Below, one piece after another: positions 3,801 through 36,447 of a stretch of DNA of 40,580 nt. Source of the DNA: Nanobdellota archaeon (GTDB lineage Archaea; Nanobdellota; Nanobdellia; SCGC-AAA011-G17; GW2011-AR17). Made by a program: the position numbers and the translations under genes. Location of the stretch: NCBI GenBank assembly GCA_034718475.1, contig JAYEMU010000049.1:1-40580 (forward strand), in the 5' to 3' direction. The first letter of the stretch is position 1, and each line of letters opens with the position of its first letter. The notes beneath the pieces were generated by a model that worked only from the letters and a program-made list of their open reading frames with translations, searched no databases and was not told the origin of the DNA.

Positions 3801-4055
3801 TTAATTTGTTCTCAATTCACCGAATTTAGAATGGCCAAAATGAACAAGCAAATCAACATCAAGTACTGGGATATCACAAGCGCCAAAACAAGTATCAGCC
3901 CAAATAAAAATTTCAGCAGAAGTTTCAGACTCAAGAAAATCAGCAGCCTTGGATGCTTCTGGCTTCAAGCCGTCAGGCATCTGTAAACAGACAGTTTTAG
4001 CTTTCATGCCATTAATTTTCTTAACAACCTTGCTTAATTCCAAATCATATTCCAT
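3801..4055 (-). pseudogene. dph2: N-terminal stub of diphthamide synthesis protein Dph2 (84 of about 330 aa)
   Basis: 'KAKTVCLQMPDGLKPEASKAADFLE...FGACDIPVLDVDLLVHFGHS' aligns with the first ~85 residues of archaeal Dph2 (compared from memory with the Pyrococcus protein 'RVLIQSPEGL...YGACD...LIHLGHS'). The ORF stops right after 'HFGHS', and only 55 nt separate it from the next gene. Confidence 0.65.
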
Positions 4056-4862: not shown

Positions 4863-6980
4863 ATGTGCGGCATAATTGGGATTTTTAACCAAAAGGATAA
4901 AGTCAATAAAATTATTAAGGGATTTGAAATAATTAAAGAAAGGGGTAATGGCATTTTTTGCATTTCTGATTCTAAAAAGCGATTAATAGTTAAAAATTTA
5001 AAAGATTTAAAAATTTATGAAACAAAAGAAGAAGGCATCCTTGGCAATAACCAATATTCAACTACTAATTTTATGCCTCAGCCGATTCAAGGTAAAAAAT
5101 CCATGTTAATAGCTAACTGTAGGATATATAATTGGGAAATCCTTAATGAAAAATATAAATTAGATGCAAAAAATGATTCAGACCTTCTGCTAAAAATATT
5201 AGATGAAAAAGGATTAAATGCACTTGAAGAGCTTGATGGAGTTTATGCTTTTGCTTATCTTAAAAATAAAAATCTTTATTTGGCAAGGGATATATTTGGG
5301 GTAAAACCTCTTTGGCTAAGCAAAGAGAAAGGCTTATTCTTTTGTTCTGAAAGTAAGGTTTTGACCCATTTCAAGCAAGAATATATTCAAGAATTAAATC
5401 CAAGGCAAATTTTAATTTATGGCATTGAAAAAAATGAGACTAAATACATTGAACGAAAATTCTTTTCCATCAAGCCTGCCCTAAAAAAATCCTTAAAGCA
5501 AATAAAAATGGAGCTTCAGGGATTGATAGTAAATGCCATCTCTAAAAGAATACCTAATGAAAAATTTGGCATATTGTTTTCAGGGGGTTTGGATTCAGTG
5601 GTTATAGCTTTTATTTGCAAAAAGTTAGGCGTGGACTTTACATGCTATACCTCTGTATTCTATGAAAAAGGGTTAAAAAAGCCAGAGGATCTAGAATTTG
5701 CAGAAATTATAGCAAAAGAGTTAGGCTTTGAGCTTAAAGTAAAACAACTAAATAAAAAACAGGTGGAAAAATATCTAAAAAAAGTAATTCCTTTAATTGA
5801 AGATAACACTGTTGTTAAAACAGGTGTTGCCTTGACTTTTTATGCTGCTTGTGAACTCGCCAAAAAAGATAAAATAAAAGTAATTTTTTCAGGGCTTGGA
5901 AGTGAAGAGATTTTCGCAGGATATGCAAGGCACAAAAATTCTGCTGATATCAACAAAGAATGCTTATCAGGATTAAAGAAGATATACGAACGGGATAATT
6001 ACAGGGATGATGTGATTACAATGCATAATAATCTAGAATTGAGAATCCCATTCATGGATCTTCCGCTTTGCGATTATGCTTTAAAAATTCCTGCAAAACA
6101 CAAATATGACGGCAAGCTTGGAAAAATAATTTTGCGGCAAATAGCTAAGGATATGGGATTAAAAAAAGAATATGCTGACAGGCCAAAAAAATCAGCACAG
6201 TATGGCAGCAGATTTGACAAGGCATTAAAGATGGTTGCAAAAAAAAATGGGTTTAAGCACAAATCTGAATACCTTCGCCATATATCCCCTAAAAACAATC
6301 TTCACTTAGCAGTCCTCTTCAGTTCAGGCAAGGATTCTTGTTTGGCCTTGCATGTTATGAGAAAAATGAATTATAAAATTGATTGTTTGGTTACAATAAA
6401 AAGCAAAAATCCTGACTCATTTATGTATCATACGCCGAATATTGATCTAGCAAAGCTTCAAGCAGAAGCAATGGAACTGCCAATAATAATTCAGGAAACT
6501 GAAGGGGAAAAAGAAAAAGAGCTGAATGCATTAAAGGAAGCCCTTTTAATTGCAAAACAAAAATTTCCAATAGCCGGCGTTGTAACCGGAGCATTATTTT
6601 CAACTTATCAAAAAACCAGAATCGAAAAAACTTGTGAAGAATTGGGATTAAAATGTTTTTCTCCATTATGGCATATGGACCAAAAAAAAGAGATGCAAGA
6701 ATTGCTAAAGCAAGGATTTGAATTTATTTTTAGCAGCATAGCGGCTGATGGCTTGGATAAAAGCTGGCTGGGCAGGCTAATAAAAAAAACAGATATAGAA
6801 AAATTAGTTGAATTGAATAATAAAAATGAAATAAACATAGCAGGTGAAGGCGGAGAATTTGAATCACTGGTACTAAATTGCCCTGAATTTTTTAAAAAAA
6901 TCAAGATAATAAAATCAGAGATAAAAGAAGAAAACAAAAATACAGCCAAATTCCTTGTTAAGAAAACATCTCTTTCTTAA
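4863..6980 (+). CDS. Fusion protein: class-II glutamine amidotransferase plus asparagine-synthetase (AsnB-like) domains, joined to a C-terminal Dph6/MJ0570-type diphthine-ammonia-ligase-like PP-loop domain
   Basis: 705-aa uninterrupted ORF. It has the 'MCGIIGIF' Cys2 nucleophile, 'QP...NCRIYN', 'ARDIFGVKPLW', and the AsnB PP-loop 'FSGGLDSV'. From about nt 6295 there is a second PP-loop, 'LAVLFSSGKDS', plus 'GALFSTYQKTRIE', 'FSPLWH' and 'GEGGEFESLVLNCP', typical of Dph6 N-terminal domains. Confidence 0.75.
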   Translation: MCGIIGIFNQKDKVNKIIKGFEIIKERGNGIFCISDSKKRLIVKNLKDLKIYETKEEGILGNNQYSTTNFMPQPIQGKKSMLIANCRIYNWEILNEKYKLDAKNDSDLLLKILDEKGLNALEELDGVYAFAYLKNKNLYLARDIFGVKPLWLSKEKGLFFCSESKVLTHFKQEYIQELNPRQILIYGIEKNETKYIERKFFSIKPALKKSLKQIKMELQGLIVNAISKRIPNEKFGILFSGGLDSVVIAFICKKLGVDFTCYTSVFYEKGLKKPEDLEFAEIIAKELGFELKVKQLNKKQVEKYLKKVIPLIEDNTVVKTGVALTFYAACELAKKDKIKVIFSGLGSEEIFAGYARHKNSADINKECLSGLKKIYERDNYRDDVITMHNNLELRIPFMDLPLCDYALKIPAKHKYDGKLGKIILRQIAKDMGLKKEYADRPKKSAQYGSRFDKALKMVAKKNGFKHKSEYLRHISPKNNLHLAVLFSSGKDSCLALHVMRKMNYKIDCLVTIKSKNPDSFMYHTPNIDLAKLQAEAMELPIIIQETEGEKEKELNALKEALLIAKQKFPIAGVVTGALFSTYQKTRIEKTCEELGLKCFSPLWHMDQKKEMQELLKQGFEFIFSSIAADGLDKSWLGRLIKKTDIEKLVELNNKNEINIAGEGGEFESLVLNCPEFFKKIKIIKSEIKEENKNTAKFLVKKTSLS

Positions 6981-8657: not shown

Positions 8658-11141
8658 ATGATAGATATTCCTGAAAAAAATTTAACCCCTGCAATGAAAC
8701 AGTTTGTTGCTGTAAAAAATAAATATCCAGAATGCTTAGTACTATTTAGGATGGGGGATTTTTATGAAACATTCTATGAAGATGCAGTTATAGCATCAAA
8801 AGATTTAGAAATAACTTTGACTTCAAGAGGAAAAGGTGAAAAAAAAGCCCCTTTGGCAGGCATCCCCTATCATGCACTTGATAACTATTTAGCCAAGCTT
8901 GTAAAAAAAGGGCACAAAGTTGCAATAGTGGAGCAGGTGGAGGATCCAAAATTTGCCAAAGGCATAGTCAAAAGGGATGTTGTAAGGATTATAACCCCTG
9001 GTACAATAATTGAATCATCAATTCTGAACTCCAAAACATATAATTATCTGGCATCGTTGTATGTACAAGGCGAAAATTTCGCTTTAGCCTTATCAGACAT
9101 CTCTACTGGAGATTTTTTCATTGAAGAAGATAATGATATTAATAATTTAAAGAATAAGCTTATAAAATTCAACCCTAAAGAATGTTTAATCCCATTCACA
9201 TTAAGGGTAAATCATGAAATTATAAATATCTTAAATAAAACAAATACTTTTTTAACTGATTATGATGACAGGCATTTTAGATATGACAATGCTTTTAAAA
9301 CTTTAATTAATCACTTTCAAACCCAGACATTGGAAGGATTTGGAATAAAAAATAATTCTATTGTTATCAATGCCGCTGGCGCCCTATTAAAATATCTTCA
9401 TGAAACCCAGTTTAATGAGCTTAAACATATTAAAAGAATTACAAAAAACCAGCAGGACAAATATATGATGCTTGATTCCAGCACATTAAGAAATCTTGAA
9501 ATCCTGCAAAATATCAAGGACCAAAGTAAACGTGGAACTTTGATATCAACCTTGGATTCTACAACAACTGCTATGGGCTCAAGATTAATAAGGCGCTGGT
9601 TAACTGAACCTTTGCTTGATATCGAAGAAATAAAAAAAAGGCTAGACTGCGTTGAATTTTTTAGCCAAAACACAATTTTAAGGGAAGAAATCTTTTCATT
9701 GCTTAAAGGCATAACAGATATTGAAAGGCTGATTTCAAGAGTTAATTATGGATCTGCCAGTCCAAGGGACCTTATTTCATTAAAGGCTTCATTGCGCCAT
9801 TTGCCATTTATTTTTAAAAAGCTTTGCACAATCAAAATCCCTTTAATCCTTGAACTAAGCGAAATTGAAGATTTTTCCAGTTTAGTTGATTTACTAGAAA
9901 GTTCAATAAGGGAAGATGCGCCAGCCACAATCAGGGAAGGCAACTTAATAAAGTTTGGATTTAATGAAGTATTAAAAGAACTTCTTAATATCAAAAATGA
10001 TGGCAAAAGATTTCTAAAAGACTTAGAGGAAAAAGAAAAAAGAAAAACAGGCATTAAAAATTTAAGAATTGGCTACAATAGAGTTTTTGGATATTTTTTA
10101 GAAGTTTCAAAATCCAACCTGCCAGCAGTTCCTGATTACTACATAAGAAAACAAACCAGAAAAAACTCTGAAATGTTCATAACCGAAGAGCTAAAGATAC
10201 AAGAAGCCAAGATCCTTGGCGCCCAAGAAAAGATTCAAAGTTTAGAATATGAAATTTTTCAGGATATCTTAAAGCGGGTTGCATTTTATACAAACCCAGT
10301 TCAGGATTGTGCCAAAAAGATTGCAATATTGGATGTCATTCTTTCTTTTGCAAAAGTTTCTTCTGAAAATAATTATTGCAAGCCAGAATTAAACGACTCA
10401 GCTTCCATAATTTTAAAAGATTCCAGGCATCCAGTTGTAGAATTGCTTGAAAGTAATTTTGTTCCAAATGATATTAATTTACATAATTCTCAAATATCTG
10501 TAATTACAGGCCCAAACATGGCTGGAAAAAGCACAGTCCTAAGGCAAGTTGCCCTTAATGTATTAATGGCCCAGATTGGATGTTTTTGTGCTTGCCAAGA
10601 AGCATCCATTGGGATTGTAGACCGCATATTTACCAGGGTCGGTGCTTATGACGATTTAACTATGGGGCAATCAACATTCATGGTCGAAATGGTTGAAGCA
10701 GCCAACATCTTAAACAATGCTACTGGCAAAAGCCTAATCATCCTGGATGAAATCGGACGTGGGACTTCCACCTTTGATGGAGTTTCACTTGCATGGAGCA
10801 TTGTTGAATATATTTATAATAAAATAAAAGCCAAAACAATGTTTGCTACCCATTACCATGTTTTAAACAAGTTAGAAACACAATTTAGCAATATTAAGAA
10901 TTATAATATCGCAGTTCTGGAAAAAAATGAAGATATAACATTTCTGCATAAACTAATCGAAGGAAGCACTAACAGAAGTTATGGCATACATGTAGCAAAG
11001 CTTGCTGGATTGCCAAAACATGTAATAAATAGGGCCAAAGAAATCCAACAGAATCTTGAAGAGGACGACAAAATGGCAAAAAAAATAAATGCAAAAAGAA
11101 TCATAGAACAAAAAACTTTATTGGAGATGAAAAATGATTAA
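8658..11141 (+). CDS. mutS: DNA mismatch repair protein MutS (bacterial MutS1 type)
   Basis: 827 aa. Mismatch-binding motif 'GDFYETF', Walker A 'GPNMAGKST', 'STFMVEM' and 'DEIGRGTSTFDG'. Confidence 0.95.
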   Translation: MIDIPEKNLTPAMKQFVAVKNKYPECLVLFRMGDFYETFYEDAVIASKDLEITLTSRGKGEKKAPLAGIPYHALDNYLAKLVKKGHKVAIVEQVEDPKFAKGIVKRDVVRIITPGTIIESSILNSKTYNYLASLYVQGENFALALSDISTGDFFIEEDNDINNLKNKLIKFNPKECLIPFTLRVNHEIINILNKTNTFLTDYDDRHFRYDNAFKTLINHFQTQTLEGFGIKNNSIVINAAGALLKYLHETQFNELKHIKRITKNQQDKYMMLDSSTLRNLEILQNIKDQSKRGTLISTLDSTTTAMGSRLIRRWLTEPLLDIEEIKKRLDCVEFFSQNTILREEIFSLLKGITDIERLISRVNYGSASPRDLISLKASLRHLPFIFKKLCTIKIPLILELSEIEDFSSLVDLLESSIREDAPATIREGNLIKFGFNEVLKELLNIKNDGKRFLKDLEEKEKRKTGIKNLRIGYNRVFGYFLEVSKSNLPAVPDYYIRKQTRKNSEMFITEELKIQEAKILGAQEKIQSLEYEIFQDILKRVAFYTNPVQDCAKKIAILDVILSFAKVSSENNYCKPELNDSASIILKDSRHPVVELLESNFVPNDINLHNSQISVITGPNMAGKSTVLRQVALNVLMAQIGCFCACQEASIGIVDRIFTRVGAYDDLTMGQSTFMVEMVEAANILNNATGKSLIILDEIGRGTSTFDGVSLAWSIVEYIYNKIKAKTMFATHYHVLNKLETQFSNIKNYNIAVLEKNEDITFLHKLIEGSTNRSYGIHVAKLAGLPKHVINRAKEIQQNLEEDDKMAKKINAKRIIEQKTLLEMKND

Positions 11142-12876
11142 TATTTTAGATGAAAAAGTAATAAACAAAATAGCAGCTGGCGAAGTGATTGAAAGGCCGG
11201 CATCTGTCGTTAAAGAATTAATTGAAAATTCTTTGGATGCTAAATCTTCAAAAATAGAAATTCATATTGAAGATTATGGTAAAAGATTAATTAAAGTTTC
11301 TGATGATGGAACAGGAATGTCTAAGGAGGATGCAAAATTATCAGTGCTTCGATATGCAACTAGTAAAATCAAAGATGAAAACGATATCTTGAATATTGAA
11401 ACACTTGGTTTTAGGGGAGAAGCCTTGGCTTCGATAGGAGCCATATCAAATCTAACAATTTCTACAAAAATGCCAAATGAATTAGAAGGTTTTAAAATAG
11501 AAATTGAAGGGGGCAAATTTTTATCCTCAATGCCGCAAGGCAGGCCTGCTGGCACAACTATTGAAGTAAGGGATCTATTTTTTAATACTCCTGCAAGATT
11601 AAAATTTTTAAGGACTGACAATAACGAATTGAATCATATTGTGGATATTGTTACCAGATATGGGCTGGCCAATCCAAACATTTCCATTAAACTAATGCAT
11701 AACAATCATATTTTATTAAATAGTCCAAAAAATTTTTCAGCATTAGACAACATAGCTTCAATTTATGGGATAGAAATTGTAAAGCAATTAATCGGAATTC
11801 ATTTTCTAAAAAAAGACATTGAAATTACCGGCTTCATCTCAAAACCCTCTTTATTGAAATCAGATAAATCCATGCAATCAATTTATGTCAACAATAGATT
11901 TGTCAAGGATGATATAATGACTAAAGCCATATATGATGCTTATCACACATTACTTTTTGTCAATAGGCATCCAGTAGCAATATTAAATATAAAACTAAAT
12001 CCAGAGACAATTGATGTAAATGTCCATCCTACAAAAGAAAAAATAAAATTTGCAGAAAATGAAAGAATCTATGAAACAATATTCAATGCAATAAGGGACA
12101 CCTTATTAAATAACAATTTAATAGTTGATTTTTCTGCAATTGAAGATAATCAAAAATTAAACTTTGAAAATAAAGGATTCAATAATCAAAAATTTCAGAC
12201 CCCTAATGTTAAGCCTACTAAAGCTGAGATTTATACTTCTAAAGATATTCAAGGCACAATATCATTGCCTGCTGAAAAAATAAAAAGAAAAAATAAAAAG
12301 CTTCCAGAAATCAGATTAATTGGACAAATATTCAAAACCTTTTTTTTGGGTGAAACCAAAAATGGATTGCTTCTTATAGATCAGCACATTGTACATGAAC
12401 GGATTAACTATGAGAAATTTATGCAGCAGCTTATGAATAAGCAGATAAAAATCCAATCTTTGCTTTCACCATTAATAGTTAATTTGCCGCCAAAAGAATC
12501 TGTTTTTCTAAAAAATAATCTCCAAGATATAAACCAATTTGGTTTTGAAATAAATAATTTTGAAGGAAATTCTTTTATTGTGCGATCAGTACCCTCTATA
12601 TTAAATAAAATACAAACTAAAGAAAGTTTTGAAGAACTTATTTCAGATTTAGCAAATGAAAAAGATTTGTCTCTTGAAAAAAAGCAGGAAGAAATCATTA
12701 CAAGGATGGCTTGCCGCGCATCTATAAAAGCTGGTGAAGAGATTAGTATTCCTCAAATGGAAAAGCTTTTAGAAGAACTTGATGAATGTGAACAGCCTTA
12801 TACTTGCCCGCATGGAAGGCCAATTTTCGTAAATTTGACATTAAATGATTTAGAAAAAATGTTTAAAAGAAAATGA
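11134..12876 (+). CDS. mutL: DNA mismatch repair protein MutL, endonuclease-proficient type
   Basis: GHKL motifs 'ELIENSLDA' and 'DDGTGM'. Endonuclease motif 'DQHIVHERINYE' (DQHAxxExxxxE-like), plus 'ACRASIKAG' and 'CPHGRP'. The start overlaps the mutS stop by 8 nt. Confidence 0.93.
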   Translation: MINILDEKVINKIAAGEVIERPASVVKELIENSLDAKSSKIEIHIEDYGKRLIKVSDDGTGMSKEDAKLSVLRYATSKIKDENDILNIETLGFRGEALASIGAISNLTISTKMPNELEGFKIEIEGGKFLSSMPQGRPAGTTIEVRDLFFNTPARLKFLRTDNNELNHIVDIVTRYGLANPNISIKLMHNNHILLNSPKNFSALDNIASIYGIEIVKQLIGIHFLKKDIEITGFISKPSLLKSDKSMQSIYVNNRFVKDDIMTKAIYDAYHTLLFVNRHPVAILNIKLNPETIDVNVHPTKEKIKFAENERIYETIFNAIRDTLLNNNLIVDFSAIEDNQKLNFENKGFNNQKFQTPNVKPTKAEIYTSKDIQGTISLPAEKIKRKNKKLPEIRLIGQIFKTFFLGETKNGLLLIDQHIVHERINYEKFMQQLMNKQIKIQSLLSPLIVNLPPKESVFLKNNLQDINQFGFEINNFEGNSFIVRSVPSILNKIQTKESFEELISDLANEKDLSLEKKQEEIITRMACRASIKAGEEISIPQMEKLLEELDECEQPYTCPHGRPIFVNLTLNDLEKMFKRK

Positions 12877-13992: not shown

Positions 13993-15090
13993 ATGGACAT
14001 GGACATTGAATCAATAGAAATAAAATTAAAAGAATTAAAAGAAGAGTTAACAAAATTTAATAAAAAAAGAGCATTAAACTTTTTCGATATTACATTGATT
14101 TCTGAAAGAGAAATATCACATTCTGCTTTTTTAGCTTGGCTATTAAATCCTAAAGAAAATCATGGATTAAATGATTTATTTTTGCAAAGTATTCTTAAAA
14201 AAATAAATTATACTGAAGAATATAAAATCAATGAAGTTGTTGTTGAAACAGAAATCACAGAGATATCTCGAAGAATAGACATAATCATCCATATTAATGA
14301 TGTAACTATTTGTATTGAAAATAAAATTTGGGATTATCCGACAATTAAACAAATAGAGGATGAAATTAAAGAATTTGAACCAAATTATATGGTTCTTTTA
14401 GCACCAAAAGAAATCATCACATCATTTAAAAAAGAAAATGATTTAAAAAATATCTATTATATTAACTACGACTACATTTGTAAATCTATTAAAGAATTGA
14501 TGAATAAAACAACAAATGATGACTTAAAAACATTGCTTAAAAATTATAATCTTAATTTGGAGGAAAATATAATGACAAATGAACATAACCCATTTACTAA
14601 TAAATCAATATTATATAATAAATATCAAGATTTCATTGATGAAGTTACTGAAAAATATAATGATGAGAAAAAAACCATTAAAAATTCAATTAAAAAGAAG
14701 ATTCAGACTAAATTTTCAGAATTGAATAAATATGGCTTTACAACTGATAATGATATATATGTTCAAAACAAGATTTGGTATGGAGAGGGGTTTGATATTT
14801 ACTTAGTAATTGATTTAGATATTGATCATCTCAATAAAAATAAGAGTTCAATTTCAATTAAAATGGGTTCATACATAAAAGAAAAAAGCCAAAGCATTAG
14901 AAAAAGTTTTATAGCAAAATTTGGAAATTTTCTTGAACAAAATGGTTATAAAAAAAGTAAAGACAATTATAGTGTATATGAAAAAGAATTTGAATTTGAG
15001 AATTTTATAGAGGATGTTTTTAAAGAAGTAAAAGTTTTAATGGAAAATAATGTTGGTGATTTTATAACTGACTGTATAAATAATGCCTAA
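13993..15090 (+). CDS. PD-(D/E)xK nuclease-superfamily protein (PDDEXK_4-like N-terminal domain with a long Lys/Asn-rich C-terminal region)
   Basis: 'NFFDITLISEREISHSAFLAWLLNPKENHGL' followed by 'RIDIIIHINDVTICIENKIW', which gives the D...ExK catalytic arrangement. Confidence 0.6.
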   Translation: MDMDIESIEIKLKELKEELTKFNKKRALNFFDITLISEREISHSAFLAWLLNPKENHGLNDLFLQSILKKINYTEEYKINEVVVETEITEISRRIDIIIHINDVTICIENKIWDYPTIKQIEDEIKEFEPNYMVLLAPKEIITSFKKENDLKNIYYINYDYICKSIKELMNKTTNDDLKTLLKNYNLNLEENIMTNEHNPFTNKSILYNKYQDFIDEVTEKYNDEKKTIKNSIKKKIQTKFSELNKYGFTTDNDIYVQNKIWYGEGFDIYLVIDLDIDHLNKNKSSISIKMGSYIKEKSQSIRKSFIAKFGNFLEQNGYKKSKDNYSVYEKEFEFENFIEDVFKEVKVLMENNVGDFITDCINNA

Positions 15091-17579: not shown

Positions 17580-23208
<5,629 letters not shown>

Positions 23209-27389: not shown

Positions 27390-28346
27390 GTGAAAAAAAG
27401 TTTAAAAATTCTTTTGCTTTTAACAGCAATGAGTATCCCTAGTTGTTCTTCCAGATTTTCTTATGATAGGCCAAACATAAAATATTCATATTATAAACAG
27501 CAAAAGAAATGGTATTATCTGGATTATCATTTTGACTTGAATCCTAAAAAGAAATTAACTGATAATTTCCTCCCCAGAATCCATCCTGCTTATAAACCTA
27601 ACACGATAGAAGTAAATGATACTTCAAAAAATAAATTTACAGCAAAAGCTTTTATGAAACGCAGTATTGATTCAGTAATAGCTAAAAGATATGTTAGAAA
27701 GGGTTTGGAAAAAATACTAAAAAATTATAAAACTGGCAAAATCAAAAAAGGCCATCTTAATTTGGCCAAATCTGCAATTAATTATTTTAGAAAAGATATA
27801 AGTACAGATGCAGGCAAGGGCAAATATTCTTTAAGTACTGAAGGATATAAAACACATAATTTTAATTCCTCAATAAATAAAATGAGTGTTGCATTTCAAA
27901 CAATTGGTGACAGCAGACAGACGTTGTCTGAATTTTTAACAAAGCATAAACCCTATTACTTGGGAGACTGTGATGATTTTGCAATAGCTTTAACTTCTAT
28001 TTACGAAATAATGAGAAATATAAGCCAAAATAAAAAAGGAAAATTTTGGGAAAATTTATCTCTCGAATTAAAAAGGATGCAGATTGCATATACAGTAGAG
28101 GCAAATAGCCGATTTGCTCATGCCATAAATCTTTTAATAATTTATAACAAAGATTTTACAAAAGCAATTGTGAAACCAATTGAACCTCAAGTTTATAAAC
28201 GTAAAAACTTAGAGCAGGAAGTATTGCTTAACAACAAATCCCATTTGTTACATCTAACCAGATATAGGACATCCAAGGGGATATCTGCTGCACAATCAGT
28301 TATTAGATATTATTATAATTCAAAATCCTGTTTTAAACTTAAATAA
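27390..28346 (+). CDS. Lipoprotein with a possible transglutaminase-/papain-like cysteine peptidase core
   Basis: Signal peptide with lipobox 'MSIPSC'. 'YYLGDCDDFAIALTSIY' resembles the Cys motif of transglutaminase-like/BTLCP families (GDCEDYA), followed by 'FAHAINLLI' (His) and 'IEPQ'. The assignment rests on motifs only. Confidence 0.4.
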   Translation: MKKSLKILLLLTAMSIPSCSSRFSYDRPNIKYSYYKQQKKWYYLDYHFDLNPKKKLTDNFLPRIHPAYKPNTIEVNDTSKNKFTAKAFMKRSIDSVIAKRYVRKGLEKILKNYKTGKIKKGHLNLAKSAINYFRKDISTDAGKGKYSLSTEGYKTHNFNSSINKMSVAFQTIGDSRQTLSEFLTKHKPYYLGDCDDFAIALTSIYEIMRNISQNKKGKFWENLSLELKRMQIAYTVEANSRFAHAINLLIIYNKDFTKAIVKPIEPQVYKRKNLEQEVLLNNKSHLLHLTRYRTSKGISAAQSVIRYYYNSKSCFKLK

Positions 28347-29265
28347 TTTTGTATTTAGTACTTATTAATCCCCATTCTACAAACAAGAAGAATATTGCAG
28401 CTGCTAAAAGATATAATGATAAATCTTTTTTAATTGGACTTTGCCTAAAATTGGCAATTGCTAAAAATGCTTCTTTAAGACTTTCTTCATCTGTTGGTTT
28501 AAAATATTGTCCGCCAGTACTATCTGCTATTTCTCTAAGCCCCTCTTCATCTAAGCGGAAAGTAGCAGATATGTCCCCAATTGGTGCCCCTTCTTTAGTG
28601 CCTATACCAATTGTATGCACTACAATTCTATCATCCTTAATGTATTCTAATCCAGATTGGGGAGTAATCCCAACATTATCCTGGCCATCTGTAAGTAAAA
28701 CTATGGCCCTGGGCTTATCAGAATTCATGATATTGGCAGAAGTAATAATCGCCTGCCCAATGTCTGTCCCACCCAACTTTTCAATTTCAACCCCTTTTAT
28801 TGTATTAATTATTTGATTAACATCACTTGTAGGCTGGAGCTGGATATAACTTGCACCAGAAAAAGTAACTAAGCCCATGTCAATATGGCCTGGCAGATTG
28901 TTTGCAAATAACAGCATTGCCTCTTTTGTAGCTTCTAAACGATTAGGCAGATAATCTTCAGCAAGCATACTGCTGGATGCATCCATGGCAATAACTAATT
29001 CAAAATCAGTTGATGTTCCTATATACCACAAAGATGTACCTGCTGCCGCAAAAATTAAAAAAATAACCACAATCAATCTCATTAGCAATAATAAAACATT
29101 TTTGCTTACTATTTCACCACCAGTTATTCTCCGAATGGCATCAAAATTTGCAAATCTCAAAGCCTGTTCTTTGCCATGCTTCAAACTATAAAAATGAATA
29201 AATATCAATAAGGGCAATATCCCTATTACCCAAAGGTATACTGGTTTTGCAAAAACTATCTCCAT
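28339..29265 (-). CDS. Membrane-anchored von Willebrand factor A protein (BatA-like)
   Basis: N-terminal TM helices, MIDAS 'AMDASSSM', 'VLLTDGQDNVG', and a C-terminal TM 'LLAAAIFFLFVEWGLI'. Confidence 0.8.
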   Translation of the reverse strand: MEIVFAKPVYLWVIGILPLLIFIHFYSLKHGKEQALRFANFDAIRRITGGEIVSKNVLLLLMRLIVVIFLIFAAAGTSLWYIGTSTDFELVIAMDASSSMLAEDYLPNRLEATKEAMLLFANNLPGHIDMGLVTFSGASYIQLQPTSDVNQIINTIKGVEIEKLGGTDIGQAIITSANIMNSDKPRAIVLLTDGQDNVGITPQSGLEYIKDDRIVVHTIGIGTKEGAPIGDISATFRLDEEGLREIADSTGGQYFKPTDEESLKEAFLAIANFRQSPIKKDLSLYLLAAAIFFLFVEWGLISTKYKII

Positions 29266-30167
29266 TTTTTTCTTCTTCTCATATCAAAAAATTTGAATAA
29301 TGATTCTAAATAATCCTGATCTGTAGAAAGCTCCATATAATCAATACTATGATCATCAAAAAAAGCAAAAAGATTCTTATCCTGTTTTTTAGTAAAAGAA
29401 CTATATCTTTCCTGTAGCAATGATGAGTCAATAAGTAATCTTTCATGTGTATAAGGATCTTGAACTATTACCTGGCCGACTTTATCAGGCAAACTTTTAT
29501 CTCTTGGATCTCTTACTAGAATGCAGATTAAATCAAACTTAGCAGCCATCAAACGCATTCTATGTTGCCATGCTTTATCTTGTAGCCCATAAAAATCTGA
29601 AATAACAATAACCACAGAACCTTTTTTCTTTATGAAATTTAATGCAAATTTTTCTCCAGCATCGAAATTAAAGCCACCACCATACAAATCAGGGTCAATA
29701 ATTTGATCAGCCATTTGGTAAAAATGTGGCGTCCCTTTATTAGCTTGTGTTATATGCATTACTTGATCAGAAAAAGCAATTAAGCCAACTGCATCTCCTG
29801 CAGAAAGAATTGTATAAGCCATAGCTAAAAGAAATTCTGCAGCATATTCATTTTTTAATTTTTTAGTTGAACCAAATATCATACTTTGGCTAACATCTAA
29901 AAGAAAATAAATTTCTAATTCCCTAACTTCCCTATATTTTTTTACTAAAAGTTTTTTAGTTCTAACTGAAGCTTTCCAATCAATTTCACTTGCATCCAAT
30001 GCAGGATTATAATCCTTAAATCCATCAAATTCTAAGCCACCCCCCTTAAAAAGACTTATATATTCTCCAAGAATTTGAGTTCTGACCAGCCTCTTAGTTA
30101 AAGCTTCAATTTTTTTAACTATGGGGGTTACTTCAACATTCAATCTTCTCTTATTCTGTTTTGCCAT
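29256..30167 (-). CDS. DUF58-family protein (VWA-like partner of MoxR)
   Basis: 'FDGFKDYNPALDASEIDWKASVRTKKLLVKKYREVRELEIYFLLDVSQSM' matches the DUF58 signature (R.Y..GD....IdWkasar...l.vk.....). Confidence 0.8.
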   Translation of the reverse strand: MAKQNKRRLNVEVTPIVKKIEALTKRLVRTQILGEYISLFKGGGLEFDGFKDYNPALDASEIDWKASVRTKKLLVKKYREVRELEIYFLLDVSQSMIFGSTKKLKNEYAAEFLLAMAYTILSAGDAVGLIAFSDQVMHITQANKGTPHFYQMADQIIDPDLYGGGFNFDAGEKFALNFIKKKGSVVIVISDFYGLQDKAWQHRMRLMAAKFDLICILVRDPRDKSLPDKVGQVIVQDPYTHERLLIDSSLLQERYSSFTKKQDKNLFAFFDDHSIDYMELSTDQDYLESLFKFFDMRRRKKWR

Positions 30168-30168
30168 T

Positions 30169-31143
30169 TTAAGGAACAGGCACTCTAGAAAGAATTTCTT
30201 TTATAACCATGTCTGGAGTAATTTTTTCAGCTTCAGCTTCATAAGTCAGCATTAAGCGATGCCTTAAAACATCATAAGCTACGTCCTTTACATGCTGTGG
30301 CGTTACATATTCTTTCCCCTGCAGAAGTGCTTGAGTTTTAGAACCAATAAACATCCCAATTGAAGCCCTTGGAGATCCGCCCCAATCAATATATTTTGCA
30401 TATTTAATATTATATTTGGCTGGATTCCTAGTTGCATCTGTAATTCTTACAATATATTTTTCAATATCCTTATCAAGATAAATTGTTTGAACAAATTTCT
30501 GCAAATCCAAAATTATTTTTGGTGATAATACATGATTTAATTTAAACTCTTCAAATTTTCTTAGGGAGATATTCGTATTGAGAATTTGTTGTTCCTCATC
30601 CATGGATGGATACCCCATTAGCAATTTAAAAAGAAACCTATCAACTTGTGCTTCAGGCAACCTATAAGTCCCCTCTTGTTCAATAGGATTCTGGGTAGCC
30701 ATAACAAAAAAAGGATTTTTCATGGCAAATGTTTCTTTGCCAATTGTTGCTTGTTTTTCCTGCATGGCCTCTAATAAAGCTGATTGAGTTTTTGGAGGGG
30801 CACGATTAATTTCATCTGCTAATATATAATTAGCAAATATTGGTCCCTTAATTGTATAAAATCCCTTGCCCTCTTGATAAGTTTGTAGCCCAATAATATC
30901 AGTAGGCAACAAATCCACAGTAAATTGAACTCTGGCAAATTCACAGCCTGTTACTTTAGCCAAAGTCCTAACCAAAAGGGTTTTAGCAATACCTGGAATA
31001 CCTTCAACCAAAACATGGCCATTTGCCAGAAGGCCTCTTAAAAACCCATCCACTACTTGTTCTTGACCAATAACTGCCTTCCTTACTTCTTTTTTAACAT
31101 CAACCAATAAGTTATGATATTTTTGAAATTTTTTTTGTTCCAT
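30169..31143 (-). CDS. MoxR-family AAA+ ATPase
   Basis: Walker A 'EGIPGIAKT', Walker B 'ILADEINRAPPKTQSALLEAMQE', 'VMATQNP.E.EGTYRLPEAQVDRF', and a C-terminal lid 'GGSPRASI'. Confidence 0.9.
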   Translation of the reverse strand: MEQKKFQKYHNLLVDVKKEVRKAVIGQEQVVDGFLRGLLANGHVLVEGIPGIAKTLLVRTLAKVTGCEFARVQFTVDLLPTDIIGLQTYQEGKGFYTIKGPIFANYILADEINRAPPKTQSALLEAMQEKQATIGKETFAMKNPFFVMATQNPIEQEGTYRLPEAQVDRFLFKLLMGYPSMDEEQQILNTNISLRKFEEFKLNHVLSPKIILDLQKFVQTIYLDKDIEKYIVRITDATRNPAKYNIKYAKYIDWGGSPRASIGMFIGSKTQALLQGKEYVTPQHVKDVAYDVLRHRLMLTYEAEAEKITPDMVIKEILSRVPVP

Positions 31144-31189
31144 ACATTCAATCCTAAGATTTACATCTTTTTATATTTTATTATAAAAA

Positions 31190-34100
31190 TTAAAGCGGCT
31201 TGCTAAACCTCCTTCTTTTAAAATAATACATTATTAACAAAATTGCAAATATCAAAGCTGATAATTCTAAAATAATTGCCTTCCAATTTTCAAATAAGAA
31301 ATTTTTAGCTTTAAAAACAACATCTCCAGGAGTTCTTTTTTTCTTTTCTTCAGCTATAAAATTTTTACAGCCTTCATTGGCCTGATGGACCAATTCAAGC
31401 CCTTGCTTATATTGTTTAAGGGCATACAATTGCTGCGCCTGATCCAATAATTCATTAAGCTCCACGCATTCAGGATTTTGTAAAAATAAATCTCTTGTGA
31501 ATTGTATTTGTTCTTTAAGCTGGGTCTTTAAAGCTGCATCTTTTTCCCTGACATCCACAACAATTTTTGCCTGCTCATGCAACTTCGGCGATTGCACATA
31601 TCCATCTAATAGAATAGTATATCTATCAGGAGTTAGAATCCCTGCAGTTATTTCCAATTCAATTGTTCTGCTCTCTCCAATATTTAACATGCTAAAATCA
31701 CTTTCACTCAAAACTAAAGCCAGCTCAGTTGCATTTGTCTGTGCTAAAAGTTCTATTATATTCAGATTTAGTTCTCCAGTATTATTCAAGACAACCGGAA
31801 CAAGTGTCTTCGCTAAAGGGCTTAATGTCAGGAAAGACGGGACAATAATTTCTAATGCTGGTTTCTTTATGATGGTCTGGGATGAACTTGACATTTGTGT
31901 TTGTGTAATAGTGATAGGTGCAGGCCTTGAAACCTCATCAATGATTAGATAAAATTCATTTGATTCACGGCTGTGGTTCCCATCATTGGCTACCACCACC
32001 AAAGGCACTTCACCAAAAAAATTAGGAAGGGGAGTAAAAGTCATATTATCTATATCCTCATCTACAGTAATAGTAATGTTGGATACATCTGGATCTTTGA
32101 TAATTATATCATCATAATAAGTTTTGGAATTAATCGACAACAAACCAAGACTCAAATCTTTCCTAAGGCTTGGATAGCTTATATTATAAGCAAAATTATA
32201 AGTTTGATCATTTGAAGAGACATAAACTAATGTATTATTTGTTTTATGTTTTACTTTTATCCAATAATCAGAATTTAATGTGATATTGAATGGATAAGTA
32301 GCATTTGTCTGTGTTGATGAACCCGCTGTAACATTCCTCCAATATGTTTTATTGTTCGAAGCATTCAGGAATATTTGCTGTCCATATAAGCAAGAGCCAA
32401 TAGATTGTATGCACAGGCCAGCACTGCCTGTAGTTAAAAACCTTAACTTAACCTTATATTCTGTTATGTCTGTATAGTTTTTACTTTTATAGATGGAATA
32501 GAATGCATCAGAATTATCCAATTGAACATATTTAAGATTATTGCTGATATTGACAATTCCCCAATCACCAGAATCATTCAACCAAGAATCCCCAACTGTA
32601 ATATTGCTCATGTTTGTAAATGTTTCCTTTAATGAATATTCAAACCACGAATAAGTCAGATTTTCATCATCAATATCATAAAAATAAGTACTCAAATTAA
32701 TGCCTCTGTCTTCATCTTGGTCCCAGCCGTCTGTAATGTTAGGTATATCCGAATACATAAAAGGCGGTGCATTCAAGTCAAAGATAGTTACATTCCAATA
32801 ATACCTAACTTCTAAATTATTAGAATCATTAAGAACCAAAGTAATGTTAATTTCACCAGCTTCATAAAAGCTAATATTATAATTCCAAGTTGAAGCATAT
32901 GCCACACCATTAGCAGCGCTCTTATTTAATGTACCATTTATATACCAATTGTAACTAAATATTTCAGATGGGGGATCAGCACAGGTAACCGTGAATTTTC
33001 CTATAGAGGTATTTTCAGTAGCATTGAAATGTTTAGGCGGTATATGGTTGCCTAAAATATCATGCAAAAAGATAGTGCAAGCCGGAGCAGTATCTGTATA
33101 TATCGAAAAATTGACTATTTGGGAATCAAACTGGTTTAAGGAATCATTGACAGAAATATTGACCCAATGTGTTCCTTCATCAAGTGCATTAGGAGTGAAA
33201 GAGATTTTGCCAGTTGTAAGATTTATTTCAAACAAAGATGTATTATCATGATATGTAATGTTATCATTTTCTTCATCTGTCGCAATAACTGTATAAGTAT
33301 ATGCTGCATTAACCGTAAGCTCTTGGGGTTCAATATAAGTTAAGTTTGGGGGATCATTTACACTTGAAATATTAAAATATATTACAATACTAACAACCTC
33401 ATAAGTGTTATCATAAACAGTTATATTAATTGAATAATTGCCCACATCATCTTGGACTGGGGTAAAGTTAACAATTGTTGTTGCTACATCATTTACAGTT
33501 GAAATATTGCTTTCATTTAATTGAAAAAAGGAATAGTTTGCCCTAAACCACAAATAAGATCCAGCATCTTTATCTGTAGCATTTATTATACAGCTAAAAG
33601 GCACATCTTCAGTAGCATTTCTTTCATTATCGCAAACATATTCAAGAACTGGGGGAAAAGCAGCATCAGTTATATTTATAACAAAAACTTGCGAATCCAT
33701 TAAACCTGAAGTATCATTAACAGTTATATTTATGCGGTAAGTTCCATTAGATGTTGCCCCCGGTGTAAAGCAGACTACACCAGTTACAGGATTGATATTA
33801 AATAATGAAGAATTGTCTGAAAAACGCAAATATTCAGAAGTTCCGGGTATGGCCAAATCCTCATCATCAGCAGTGACAGTAAAAGTTAATTCTTGGCCCT
33901 CATTTGTCGAATAATTTAAGATAAAATCCAAAATAGGAGTATCATTTACATTATAAATTGTAAAATTGAGGTTAAAGTAATTAACAGCACCTTTTGAATC
34001 AGTAATATTTATTTTCACCCAATTTTCACCGACATAGCTATCATTCGCAGTAAAGTTAAGGATGCCTGTTGTTTCATTAATATTAAACAATGTTGTATTA

Positions 34101-36379
34101 TCTGTAAACGTAAAACTATCCCCATCTGCATCTGAAGTATTTTTGGACATGTTCAATATAAACTCATCGCCATCTGTAATATTAAAATTAAATAAGCCAG
34201 TATACAAGGGCAAGGCATTTGCAAAAACTGTGAAATTCAAAACTGTGGAATTAACATTTAAAGATGAATCATTCACAGAAATATTGACCCAATGGGTTCC
34301 AACCACTGTAGCATTTGGAGTAAAAATAATCATTCCATTATTAAAATTTATATCAAACAATGAAGTATTATCATAATAATATAAAGTCTCACCAAACTGT
34401 GTATATACATCATCATCAGTTGCACTCATATTCAAAGTGAATGTTGCATTAACATAAGCTGAAAAATTATCTGAAAAATTATTAAACTTTGGGAGATCCT
34501 CAACATTAGTTACTGAAAAATTAATTAACACAGAATCTTTTAAGCCTCCGCTATCTGTTACAGTAATATTTATCCAATGGGCATAAACTGAGTTATCCTG
34601 GGGTATAAAATTAACTAAGCAACTAGTATTGCCATTAGAAACTGAAACGCCTGCACAGCTAAAATTGAACCATGAATAATTGGCTGAATAAGTATGGGTA
34701 TCACCAACATCAATATCAGAAGTATTTAGATGGCATGAAAAGAACACATCTTCTGCCTGCTCCAATTCATTATCGCAAGCATAAAATAAATTTGGCGGAT
34801 CATTTTGTTGGTTTACAGTTAAAACCAAATTAGAGGATGTTGTTGCATTGGGATCATTTGAATCTGTTACATTTATCTCAATAACATGGACTCCAACTTC
34901 TGCATTTGTTGGAAGAAAGCTTATGGAACCATTGGTATCATTTATGTCAAATAAAGTGGAATTATCACCAAAAAACAATAAGCCAAACCCAGTGCCTGAA
35001 CCTGAGCTGATACTCCCATTTTCCTCATCATTTGCATTGACATAAAAACTGCATAAAGAATCTTCTGTACAGGTTGGTGTTAAAGAGGAGGTAATAGTGG
35101 GATAATCATTAACAGCAGAAATTTCATAAGGCACTTTAACTGAAGAAGAGGTTAATGCTCCGCCATCTGTTACAGTTGCAGTAAAATAATGGCTGCCTGC
35201 CAAGCTTGAAGAAGTGCATTCTACAGTTACTTCCCCTGTAGTTGAATCAATAGACAAACAATCATTGAATTCTGTTGAAGAAGCATTGAATATTGCAAAA
35301 TTACTTAATGGCAAATCATTAGAATCATCATCTGAAAAGTTTGCACTTAAATTATAAAGGCAGGCAGAATCTTCAATGCAAGATTGGGACGGCGCTGTAG
35401 AACCTGAACCTAATAATTGATAAGGAGCAGTATTGCTTATTACAAAAGAATCTGTTAAATTCAAGGTTTCGTGAGTGCTGTTTGTACAATTGACTTCAAA
35501 AGTAAAAGTGCCCCACCTATCAAAAGAGGTATTAAATTCATATAGCTTTGTAGTGGCACTATAGTTCATTTGTGAAAATGGAGTATAAGAGCCAGTATAA
35601 TCAAAACGGATTGAACAATTGCCTATTATAGGCCCAAAAGAAGTATTTGAATAATTCGCATAAAAATTAACAACATAACTTCCAACACCCTTGTAGGGAA
35701 CCCCTTCCTTATTTTGCGTCCTGTTACTATACTTTGAACCTGAATCAGTATCATCCCAAATTGAAATATTTGTGTATGCGCCTGCCCCATAAGCACTAAA
35801 ATGATCAACATTAAAACTAACTGTATTTTCATTATCCTCAAAAGGAATATCTGTTTTTACCCAATCTTCACAAGTTTTAGTTAATGCATCATAATTGGCA
35901 CAATAAAAAATAGCATCAATTGGTCCTTTCTTTTCTAGAATAATATTTGCAATTTTTATATTTAAATTGTCTACAAAAACAACATCTGATTTAATAATCT
36001 TCTCTTGAGGTTTATTCACTTCCAAATTTATCTTTAAAGGTGGATCTTCAATCCCAGAAATATGTACAAAATTATTTCCATCTACAATGTTCAGTTTATA
36101 AGAATCACCATCTTTAAAAAGGACCCTTCCAAGATTATTTATAACTCCATTTTTTTGTAGCGTAACAACACTTGCTCCAGTCATTGAATATTCTCTGAAT
36201 GCCCCACAAAATAAAATAAAAGCAATTAAGAAAAATACTAATATCTTCCAAGTTTGAGGCTTATCCTTTGCTTGACCTAAATAGACATTTCTTACCTTGC
36301 CGTCATTATCTCTTACAGACTTATAAAGATAAGGCCCATAAACTTTATCTCCCCTTTTAATATATCTTTTATGTACCAT
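31190..36379 (-). CDS. Giant (1729 aa) N-glycosylation-sequon-rich surface protein with tandem cadherin-like (CADG-type) repeats and a ConA/LamG-like domain, bounded by an N-terminal signal-anchor and a C-terminal TM helix
   Basis: The N-terminus 'KRGDKVYGPYLYKSVRDNDGKVRNVYLG' is followed by TM 'ILVFFLIAFILFCGAF'. At least 8 repeats fit the pattern 'F.DN[ST]SLF.IN..TG.I.F.P......G.H.VNI.V.D[ST]'. A LamG-like block lies at about nt 32100-32600 ('GDWGIVN...YVQLDN......YYDDIIIKD'). The C-terminal TM 'IILELSALIFAILLIMYYF' is followed by 'KRRR'. Confidence 0.75.
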   Translation of the reverse strand: MVHKRYIKRGDKVYGPYLYKSVRDNDGKVRNVYLGQAKDKPQTWKILVFFLIAFILFCGAFREYSMTGASVVTLQKNGVINNLGRVLFKDGDSYKLNIVDGNNFVHISGIEDPPLKINLEVNKPQEKIIKSDVVFVDNLNIKIANIILEKKGPIDAIFYCANYDALTKTCEDWVKTDIPFEDNENTVSFNVDHFSAYGAGAYTNISIWDDTDSGSKYSNRTQNKEGVPYKGVGSYVVNFYANYSNTSFGPIIGNCSIRFDYTGSYTPFSQMNYSATTKLYEFNTSFDRWGTFTFEVNCTNSTHETLNLTDSFVISNTAPYQLLGSGSTAPSQSCIEDSACLYNLSANFSDDDSNDLPLSNFAIFNASSTEFNDCLSIDSTTGEVTVECTSSSLAGSHYFTATVTDGGALTSSSVKVPYEISAVNDYPTITSSLTPTCTEDSLCSFYVNANDEENGSISSGSGTGFGLLFFGDNSTLFDINDTNGSISFLPTNAEVGVHVIEINVTDSNDPNATTSSNLVLTVNQQNDPPNLFYACDNELEQAEDVFFSCHLNTSDIDVGDTHTYSANYSWFNFSCAGVSVSNGNTSCLVNFIPQDNSVYAHWINITVTDSGGLKDSVLINFSVTNVEDLPKFNNFSDNFSAYVNATFTLNMSATDDDVYTQFGETLYYYDNTSLFDINFNNGMIIFTPNATVVGTHWVNISVNDSSLNVNSTVLNFTVFANALPLYTGLFNFNITDGDEFILNMSKNTSDADGDSFTFTDNTTLFNINETTGILNFTANDSYVGENWVKINITDSKGAVNYFNLNFTIYNVNDTPILDFILNYSTNEGQELTFTVTADDEDLAIPGTSEYLRFSDNSSLFNINPVTGVVCFTPGATSNGTYRINITVNDTSGLMDSQVFVINITDAAFPPVLEYVCDNERNATEDVPFSCIINATDKDAGSYLWFRANYSFFQLNESNISTVNDVATTIVNFTPVQDDVGNYSINITVYDNTYEVVSIVIYFNISSVNDPPNLTYIEPQELTVNAAYTYTVIATDEENDNITYHDNTSLFEINLTTGKISFTPNALDEGTHWVNISVNDSLNQFDSQIVNFSIYTDTAPACTIFLHDILGNHIPPKHFNATENTSIGKFTVTCADPPSEIFSYNWYINGTLNKSAANGVAYASTWNYNISFYEAGEINITLVLNDSNNLEVRYYWNVTIFDLNAPPFMYSDIPNITDGWDQDEDRGINLSTYFYDIDDENLTYSWFEYSLKETFTNMSNITVGDSWLNDSGDWGIVNISNNLKYVQLDNSDAFYSIYKSKNYTDITEYKVKLRFLTTGSAGLCIQSIGSCLYGQQIFLNASNNKTYWRNVTAGSSTQTNATYPFNITLNSDYWIKVKHKTNNTLVYVSSNDQTYNFAYNISYPSLRKDLSLGLLSINSKTYYDDIIIKDPDVSNITITVDEDIDNMTFTPLPNFFGEVPLVVVANDGNHSRESNEFYLIIDEVSRPAPITITQTQMSSSSQTIIKKPALEIIVPSFLTLSPLAKTLVPVVLNNTGELNLNIIELLAQTNATELALVLSESDFSMLNIGESRTIELEITAGILTPDRYTILLDGYVQSPKLHEQAKIVVDVREKDAALKTQLKEQIQFTRDLFLQNPECVELNELLDQAQQLYALKQYKQGLELVHQANEGCKNFIAEEKKKRTPGDVVFKAKNFLFENWKAIILELSALIFAILLIMYYFKRRRFSKPL
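32770..35400 (-). repeat. Tandem array of diverged ~105-125-codon cadherin-like repeat units inside the giant gene
   Basis: Repeat-unit DNA is still recognisable. The segment starting at 33144 ('tcattgacagaaatattgacccaatg...') matches the one at 34269 ('tcattcacagaaatattgacccaatg...') over roughly 110 nt. The antisense shadow ORFs at 32991-33251 and 34062-34376 end in near-identical peptides for the same reason. Confidence 0.7.
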
Positions 36380-36428
36380 TCATACCCCTTTTAAATGTAG
36401 TACAACTTATTAATTTAGAAGAAAAGAG

Positions 36429-36441
36429 GTTATATAAAACT
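36429..36441 (-). promoter_or_regulatory. Internal TATA promoter plus Shine-Dalgarno leader for the giant gene
   Basis: The minus strand reads 'gttttatataacc' about 50 nt upstream of ATG 36379, and 'aaaggggt' lies 5-7 nt before the ATG. Confidence 0.35.
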
Positions 36442-36447
36442 TTCTGC

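Follow-up and report, generated by a model that had tools for sequence, protein, structure and literature searches.

What a single archaeal gene with two different PP-loop domains behind one glutaminase is for, and which of those domains the ammonia would serve, is the question raised by the forward strand of contig JAYEMU010000049.1, from the Nanobdellota archaeon assembly GCA_034718475.1. The window, by which we mean the whole stretch of DNA analyzed, is 40,580 nucleotides long, and the gene in question is an uninterrupted open reading frame (ORF) at 4863..6980 whose product, beginning MCGIIG, is named diphthine--ammonia ligase by NCBI. We judge it somewhat probable that this gene encodes an amidotransferase-type diphthamide synthetase of an already described archaeal fusion family, in which an AsnB-shaped accessory module feeds a Dph6 domain. 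Its parts are as follows.

4863..6980 (stop codon included), forward strand: the whole three-domain ORF, 705 aa, in the order class-II glutamine amidotransferase (GAT-II, or GAT), AsnB-like PP-loop (ASN), Dph6.
4863..5447, forward strand: class-II (N-terminal nucleophile, Ntn) glutaminase domain, aa 1-195; the Cys2 codon is at nt 4866-4868, and Cys2, N85, and D105 are kept.
5460..6290, forward strand: AsnB-like PP-loop (synthetase-like) domain, aa 200-476; ATP-site residues are conserved, and the catalytic and aspartate-binding residues of asparagine synthetases are replaced.
5580..5597, forward strand: first PP-loop, SGGLDS, aa 240-245.
5889..5909, forward strand: SGLGSEE, aa 343-349; Leu345 lies opposite AsnB Glu348 and human ASNS Glu364, and Glu348 lies opposite ASNS Asp367.
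6303..6962, forward strand: Dph6 (diphthine-ammonia ligase, DUF71) domain, aa 481-700, assigned from profiles, fold, and motifs.
6321..6338, forward strand: second PP-loop, SSGKDS, aa 487-492, equivalent to S12-S17 of Pyrococcus furiosus PF0828.
6843..6863, forward strand: GEGGEFE, aa 661-667, the Dph6-specific EGGExE motif; Glu667 corresponds to PF0828 Glu188.

An earlier, sequence-only reading of this DNA had proposed that one ORF fuses an AsnB-type glutaminase and PP-loop domain to Dph6, and Pfam and NCBIfam profiles bear out both the identities and the order of the domains. GATase_7 matches aa 73-168 (3.5e-17), with GATase_7/GATase_6 matches lying within the first ~170 residues, Asn_synthase matches from aa 219 (7.2e-42), and Diphthami_syn_2 (PF01902) matches aa 482-700 (8.6e-65). 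The motifs it had named, SGGLDS, SSGKDS, and GEGGEFE, are all present, with the Dph6 domain beginning at about nt 6303 rather than about nt 6295. An AlphaFold2 model of the whole protein has a mean predicted local distance difference test score (pLDDT) of 92.5 and a predicted template modeling score (pTM) of 0.89; comparison of this model against structures found no solved structure spanning all three domains.

Two separate genes joined through a missed stop codon or a frameshift, in assembly or in gene calling, would give the same appearance. The identical protein, however, is also encoded on a separately produced Logan assembly contig, and at least 120 homologues, 52-64% identical over the full length and all with these three Pfam domains, came out of a search of 5.8 billion proteins (NCBI, JGI, ENA, and Logan). 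A scan of one genome per GTDB species gave at least 581 related stretches, from which 78 loci were kept; most of these have the three domains in one ORF, and at least 55 fused loci are in reference genomes, cultured Methanolobus among them. Moreover, the junction between the second and third domains measures 15-16 residues, from Y470 to S487, in 119/119 sequences, with Asn479 invariant inside it. Because a second assembly, many homologues, and a fixed-length junction with an invariant residue exclude a missed stop or frameshift, we give an artefact virtually no credence: the single-ORF fusion is genuine.

The fusion is also widespread. In the GTDB species scan, its carriers within DPANN are Woesearchaeota/Nanoarchaeota, Iainarchaeia/Diapherotrites, Micrarchaeota, and Altiarchaeota. 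Those in Methanosarcinales, where homologues are full length at 46-51% identity, include cultured Methanolobus bombayensis DSM 7082 and Methanohalophilus sp. RSK, and further carriers are the anaerobic methanotrophic (ANME) groups ANME-1 and ANME-3, Methanomicrobiales, and Halobacteria metagenome-assembled genomes (MAGs). A full three-domain homologue (L028) also stands on a contig labeled as an Acidobacteriota bacterium MAG, probably a mis-binned archaeal contig.

The sequence-only reading knew of no description of the architecture, but it was published in 2012. De Crecy-Lagard et al. (Biol Direct 7:32; PMC3541065) reported a COG0367/AsnB domain N-terminal to DUF71 in Methanohalophilus mahii, Methanosalsum zhilinae, and Ca. 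Nanosalinarum, the COG0367/AsnB part combining GAT-II with a PP-loop domain of the Asn_Synthase_B_C type, and proposed that GAT-II hydrolyzes glutamine to supply both PP-loop domains with NH3. In review, L. Aravind asked which of the two consumes the ammonia and what reaction the AsnB-like one catalyzes (PMC3541065). A full-text literature search found no further paper on an AsnB-Dph6 fusion. The 705-aa protein has GAT-II, Asn_Synthase PP-loop, and DUF71 domains in the same order in one archaeal polypeptide, and the same ammonia-supply logic can be proposed for it; it differs from the 2012 fusions in coming from a Nanoarchaeota/Woesearchaeota-type MAG and in lineage-specific substitutions in its glutaminase pocket. 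Both the architecture and its ammonia-supply rationale are already in print, and the fusion is common in archaea rather than novel. Three points go beyond the published description: the AsnB-like domain is predicted not to be an asparagine synthetase, the ASN-Dph6 linkage comes with an optional glutaminase, and the pocket of this copy is diverged. The AsnB-like active site, the GAT-less variants, and the split-gene arrangements lie outside the coverage of the 2012 paper.

The Dph6 end of the protein anchors its assignment to diphthamide synthesis. Its match to TIGR03679 (Dph6_archaeal, NCBIfam) spans positions 1-216 of the 218 in the profile and reaches 269.2 bits, where the curated cutoff is 197.3. 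Over its whole length, the domain can be aligned with PF0828 (3RJZ) and Pyrococcus horikoshii PH1257 (2D13), at 37-43% identity in Foldseek alignments, and the modeled domain superimposes on both structures with a target-normalized Foldseek template modeling (TM) score of 0.92-0.95 and a root mean square deviation of 1.3-1.6 Å. Published criteria separate Dph6 from the DUF71-B12 type by EGGE/DxE188 in place of ENGE(F/Y)H, by ATP-site residues, and by predicted contacts with elongation factor 2 (EF-2) (PMC3541065). Here, the PF0828 ATP-site residues S12, G14, K15, D16, H48, and T189 correspond to S487, G489, K490, D491, H523, and S668, the last position being Ser or Thr across the fusion family, while E662, G663, G664, E665, and E667 of the EGGExE motif are each invariant in 119/119 sequences. 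The predicted EF-2 interface of PF0828 comprises S44, Y45, E78, Y103, Q104, E183, and E186 (PMC3541065), for which the counterparts are S519, F520 (Tyr in most of the family), E553, Y582, Q583, E662, and E665. Across the 119 relatives, the ATP-site and predicted EF-2-contact residues are invariant or conservatively substituted. By every criterion of sequence and modeled fold, the C-terminal domain is a predicted diphthine-ammonia ligase.

Aa 481-700 resemble stand-alone archaeal Dph6 (PF0828, PDB 3RJZ/3RK0/3RK1; PH1257, PDB 2D13) in sequence, fold, ATP site, and EGGExE motif. Those proteins, unlike the 705-aa protein, are single-domain, ~230 aa long, and without an amidotransferase module. Eukaryotic Dph6 offers a different parallel: yeast YLR143W (DUF71 plus two RidA-like domains) likewise joins Dph6 to accessory domains proposed as ammonia providers (PMC3541065). 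Its accessory domains are RidA-type and C-terminal, whereas those of the 705-aa protein are GAT-II/AsnB-like and N-terminal, and the two kinds are unrelated.

A further gene of the same pathway lies close by.

3801..4055, reverse strand: 84-aa Dph2 N-terminal gene of a split Dph1/2; outside the fusion, 0.8 kb upstream of it.

The sequence-only reading had called this dph2 decayed and had suggested that the Dph6-like domain may now serve a new amidation substrate. A domain serving something other than diphthine, in a genome whose diphthamide pathway is decaying, draws its support from that reading of the short ORF, and the ORF proves to be otherwise. It matches the first 58 positions of PF01866, and at least 120 clusters of homologous proteins exist, almost all with lengths of 78-90 aa (range 75-99) and at 54-72% identity, mostly from Woesearchaeota/Nanoarchaeota and many on long contigs. 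The small gene stands alone in a relative too, with the C-terminal half not nearby, and Narrowe et al. (2018; PMC6143161) described several DPANN genomes in which the N- and C-terminal parts of Dph1/2 are two genes. Judged from its homologues, the 84-aa dph2 is a conserved split gene and not a remnant. Together with the kept EGGExE motif and EF-2 contact residues, and with a domain that is not of the DUF71-B12 type (ENGE(F/Y)H), this makes a new substrate very improbable. Adjacency of dph2 to the fusion is not a conserved feature, because it is absent in a 63%-identical relative (L002) that retains the order YggS-like / fusion / AA-kinase / MutS / MutL.

The domain between the glutaminase and Dph6 can be read in several ways. 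One rival explanation makes the protein a true bifunctional enzyme, in which one glutaminase supplies a working asparagine synthetase site and Dph6 alike. The AsnB-like fold is complete enough to invite this: the PP-loop, both ATP-binding lysines, and ELRxPFxD are intact, the top non-Dph6 NCBIfam matches are asparagine synthase models, ASNS Asp-400 is kept as D378, and the change of Asp-367 to Glu is conservative. Pairwise and profile alignments to Escherichia coli AsnB (1CT9) and human ASNS (6GQ3), however, place Leu345 at AsnB Glu348 / ASNS Glu-364 and Glu348 at ASNS Asp-367, and they place V318/K319/G321 at T322/T323/R325 of the aspartate-binding TTxR segment of AsnB. The E364A and E364Q variants of human ASNS are inactive (Zhu et al., PMC6748925). 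Leu occupies the catalytic-Glu position in 117/119 close relatives, and among 199 wider sequences this position is acidic (Asp) in one of five GAT-degenerate, Dph6-less sequences and never in the other 194, where the classes have L, S, I, V, N, A, T, F, or M. Scores against the asparagine synthase equivalogs fall below both cutoffs (TIGR01536, 238.2 versus 267.1; NF006949, 198.2 versus 499), and the C-terminal ~80-100 residues of AsnB are missing. The domain, moreover, stays linked to Dph6 in lineages without a glutaminase. Because the catalytic Glu is Leu, the aspartate-binding residues are replaced, and the equivalog scores are below cutoff, the AsnB-like domain is, as judged from sequence, not an asparagine synthetase, and we regard the bifunctional enzyme as improbable.

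The same comparison shows how much of the amidotransferase scaffold persists. The 705-aa protein has the two-domain fold and orientation of AsnB and ASNS and shares with them the Cys nucleophile, the interdomain Glu, and, for ATP binding, the PP-loop and both lysines; it differs from them in the catalytic and TTxR positions, the glutamine-carboxylate Arg, the truncated C terminus, and the equivalog scores. The SGGxDS loop is intact in nearly all of the 199 sequences. With two exceptions at each position, K421 (AsnB K429) is conserved as Lys and K442 (AsnB K449 / ASNS K466) as Lys or Arg, and the ELRxPFxD and AAQYGS motifs are kept in the AsnB-like clade. These domains constitute a distinct, strongly constrained clade that probably binds ATP, with an acyl substrate that is different or absent.

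A proposal that this clade is the archaeal counterpart of eukaryotic ASNSD1/YML096W was dropped for want of support for specific orthology. In that comparison, made with unverified sequences, the family ASN hidden Markov model (HMM) gave 105 bits for E. coli AsnB, 92 for YML096W, and 79 for ASNSD1, whereas the family GAT HMM gave 79 bits for E. coli AsnB and 26 for YML096W, with no hit to ASNSD1. No functional assignment for ASNSD1 was found in a literature search.

Evidence on what the AsnB-like domain travels with comes from gene arrangements, which were classified with three domain HMMs built from the family alignment. Locus sampling is biased to fusions, the query itself being one, and some "GAT-ASN only" proteins are contig-end truncations (e.g., P0171), so that counts overstate the unfused forms. 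Four arrangements join ASN to Dph6: three-domain GAT-ASN-DPH6 fusions; complete genes of a two-domain ASN-DPH6 type that lack a glutaminase (P0157, an internal gene whose upstream neighbor is divergently oriented, and loci L053-55, L057, L061, and L068); ASN and DPH6 as two separate genes, end to end or overlapping (L073, L074, and P0227, the last with a 4-nt overlap seen in two assemblies); and divergently adjacent ASN and DPH6 genes (L075 and L078). Some three-domain proteins from Halobacteria, Methanospirareceae, and ANME-1-type sequences have a Cys-less glutaminase (MTR.../MYR...). For instance, at L038, L041, L045, L043, and L071 (Halobacteria, Methanospirareceae, and Methanophagales MAGs), the catalytic Cys or the N85/D105 pocket is lost, with the AsnB-like PP-loop and Dph6 motifs intact. 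GAT-ASN or ASN-only genes without Dph6 within 5 kb exist as well (e.g., L066 and L070). What is conserved is the pairing of the AsnB-like domain with Dph6, to which a glutaminase is an optional addition.

Where a glutaminase exists, it nevertheless appears to be coupled to the AsnB-like domain. ASNS Glu-414 lies within 5 Å of the glutamine pocket (PMC6748925), and its equivalent, E392, is Glu in 108/108 proteins with an intact glutaminase, 4/14 with a degenerate one, and 14/32 without one, a correlated change that points to real GAT-ASN coupling. Model residues 1 to ~480 superimpose on whole AsnB and ASNS chains with a target-normalized TM score of 0.75-0.79 over ~500-530 aligned columns, and the two domains would thus be oriented as in AsnB.

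On this evidence, the favored scheme of an AsnB-shaped module feeding Dph6 would work as follows. By homology, the Dph6 domain would bind ATP and adenylate the diphthine carboxylate on the modified histidine of archaeal EF-2 (aEF-2), after which ammonia would displace AMP to yield diphthamide. In most members, the Cys2 glutaminase probably frees ammonia, which, as the architecture and the E392 correlation suggest, would reach the synthetase-like domain through an interdomain path like that of AsnB; the synthetase-like domain appears rigidly joined to Dph6, and the ammonia may then move on to the Dph6 site. In the 705-aa protein, the glutaminase may be weakened or re-specified, and the enzyme might then use free ammonia, like stand-alone Dph6.

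Several observations weigh against this scheme, and most concern the glutaminase. The Arg that binds the glutamine alpha-carboxylate (ASNS R48 / AsnB R49) is absent in >90% of the family in either alignment register. The register is ambiguous by one residue (Methanolobus has GHRLHS), position 64 being Leu in 121/135 sequences and position 63 variable, with Arg in 10/135, mostly Methanosarcinales. Because this Arg is missing, even the family-typical glutaminase, with its GHxLH motif, is noncanonical. The 705-aa protein departs further, with the substitutions D30G (in the RGxD motif), H62N, L64Q, H65Y, V68T, and E87R, and has six departures in 42 near-invariant GAT columns, for which the family median is 0 and the four nearest relatives have 0-1. 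Between its GAT domain and those of the 118 other sequences, mean identity is 44.9% (family mean, 51.4 +/- 2.2), its other two domains are at the family-mean identity, and its GAT/DPH6 identity ratio is the lowest of 119; its GAT domain is the most diverged among these relatives. Beyond this copy, the GAT-less and GAT-degenerate members indicate that Dph6 does not depend on the glutaminase, and a pure ammonia-supply role does not account for the strict conservation of the ASN-like ATP site. Finally, a search of the window found no Dph2 C-terminal gene, Dph5, or aEF-2 on the 40.6-kb contig.

How far the glutaminase of this copy has changed can be read from what it keeps. The sequence-only reading had described an intact Cys2, and Cys2 is indeed present here and in 117/117 ungapped relatives, but other residues of the pocket are altered. 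Cys2, N85 (ASNS N74), E87 (E76), and D105 (D96) are near-invariant in the family; the ASNS glutamine pocket of R48, V52, N74, G75, E76, and D96 is represented in the 705-aa protein by N63/Q64 (no Arg), T68, N85, C86, R87, and D105. Since Cys2, N85, D105, E392, and R394 are retained, we take the glutaminase to be not clearly dead but possibly weakened or re-specified. As the source of the odd residues, a frameshift or a sequencing error was considered and rejected: the other two frames are stop-rich and without the family motif, and the E-to-R change needs at least 2 base changes. As for the ammonia channeling that had been proposed, it is plausible for the family, given the AsnB-like GAT/synthetase orientation and an interdomain Glu that is invariant with an intact glutaminase. 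It is weaker for the 705-aa protein, whose glutamine pocket carries unusual substitutions, and it overlooks both an intervening site that is not that of an asparagine synthetase and the many relatives without a glutaminase.

Two other observations concern the same pocket. Arg87 occurs in only two of 135 sequences, the 705-aa protein and a homologue from the ANME-3 "Ca. Methanovorans" (L024, 6001-8223). The latter fusion has independently changed RGxD to RGNG and Glu87 to Arg ("CRIYN"), is also without N85 and E392, and has a clearly degenerate glutaminase. Separately, nt 5049-5066 (aa 63-68) encode N-Q-Y-S-T-T, which resembles the PurF-type glutaminase motif R-Y-S-T-T minus the Arg, probably by coincidence; the PurF-like ORF used for that comparison is at 8504-9988 of L024.

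Since its ATP site is complete and it accompanies Dph6 even without a glutaminase, the AsnB-like domain looks like more than a passive conduit. It could act independently on a substrate of its own, as an ATP-dependent amidoligase or adenylating enzyme that is functionally tied to Dph6 (e.g., acting on aEF-2 or in the same pathway) and to which the glutaminase is an optional extra. Many invariant polar residues and an ATP site conserved among the 199 sequences whatever their glutaminase status are consistent with this, as are the more than half of GAT-less forms that are without the GAT-interface Glu yet retain the PP-loop, and the repeated fusion or adjacency to Dph6 in four gene arrangements. 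However, no candidate substrate is known, and diphthine itself offers a single carboxylate; in addition, certain GAT-ASN or ASN-only genes lie apart from Dph6, and the fusion query biased the loci sampled toward fusions. We hold such an independent enzyme to be unlikely, though well short of negligible. Equally tentative is the more specific proposal that the distinct archaeal AsnB-like clade (nonacidic catalytic-Glu site, GHxLH, and AAQYGS) is an ATP-using partner of Dph6 that would contribute its own catalytic or gating step to diphthamide formation on aEF-2, with a dispensable glutaminase.

The rest of the window holds several features apart from the fusion. Genes for a bacterial-type MutS (827 aa) and MutL (580 aa) lie at 8658-12876 on the forward strand, in the same placement relative to the fusion as in L002. 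A PD-(D/E)XK nuclease family gene (13993-15090, forward strand) coincides with the lowest-GC kilobase of the window (0.22 versus ~0.31) and is possibly foreign DNA. The GyrB gene (20005-23187, reverse strand) is split by an intein (Intein_splicing, aa 435-857) that separates its GyrB and Toprim domains, and is followed by GyrA at 17580-20012, a bacterial-type gyrase in a DPANN archaeon. Overlapping genes for a HEPN protein (156 aa) and a nucleotidyltransferase (192 aa), at 1193-2222 on the reverse strand, resemble a HEPN/MNT toxin-antitoxin pair and lie beside a tRNA-Ser(GGA) at 1078-1163. At the far end, within 28339-38415 on the reverse strand, a MoxR AAA+ / DUF58 / VWA-BatA operon (28339-31143) stands beside genes for two large proteins with Big_9 Ig repeats (1729 aa and 655 aa) that are probably at the cell surface.

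The AsnB-Dph6 fusion was among the original genomic evidence that DUF71 is Dph6 and that the ammonia source varies among lineages, and finding it again therefore adds a member and not a new kind of enzyme. Two annotation traps are corrected along the way: the N-terminal part of such proteins read as "asparagine synthase" and the short DPANN dph2 read as a pseudogene. The remaining interest lies in the atypical glutaminase of this copy and in the role of the AsnB-like partner domain, a twelve-year-old question that is now open to testing with point mutants. Should the AsnB-like clade prove to work with Dph6 in this ATP-using way, the question put by L. Aravind about the 2012 paper would be answered, and it would follow that the amidation that completes diphthamide in archaea is not always a one-domain reaction.

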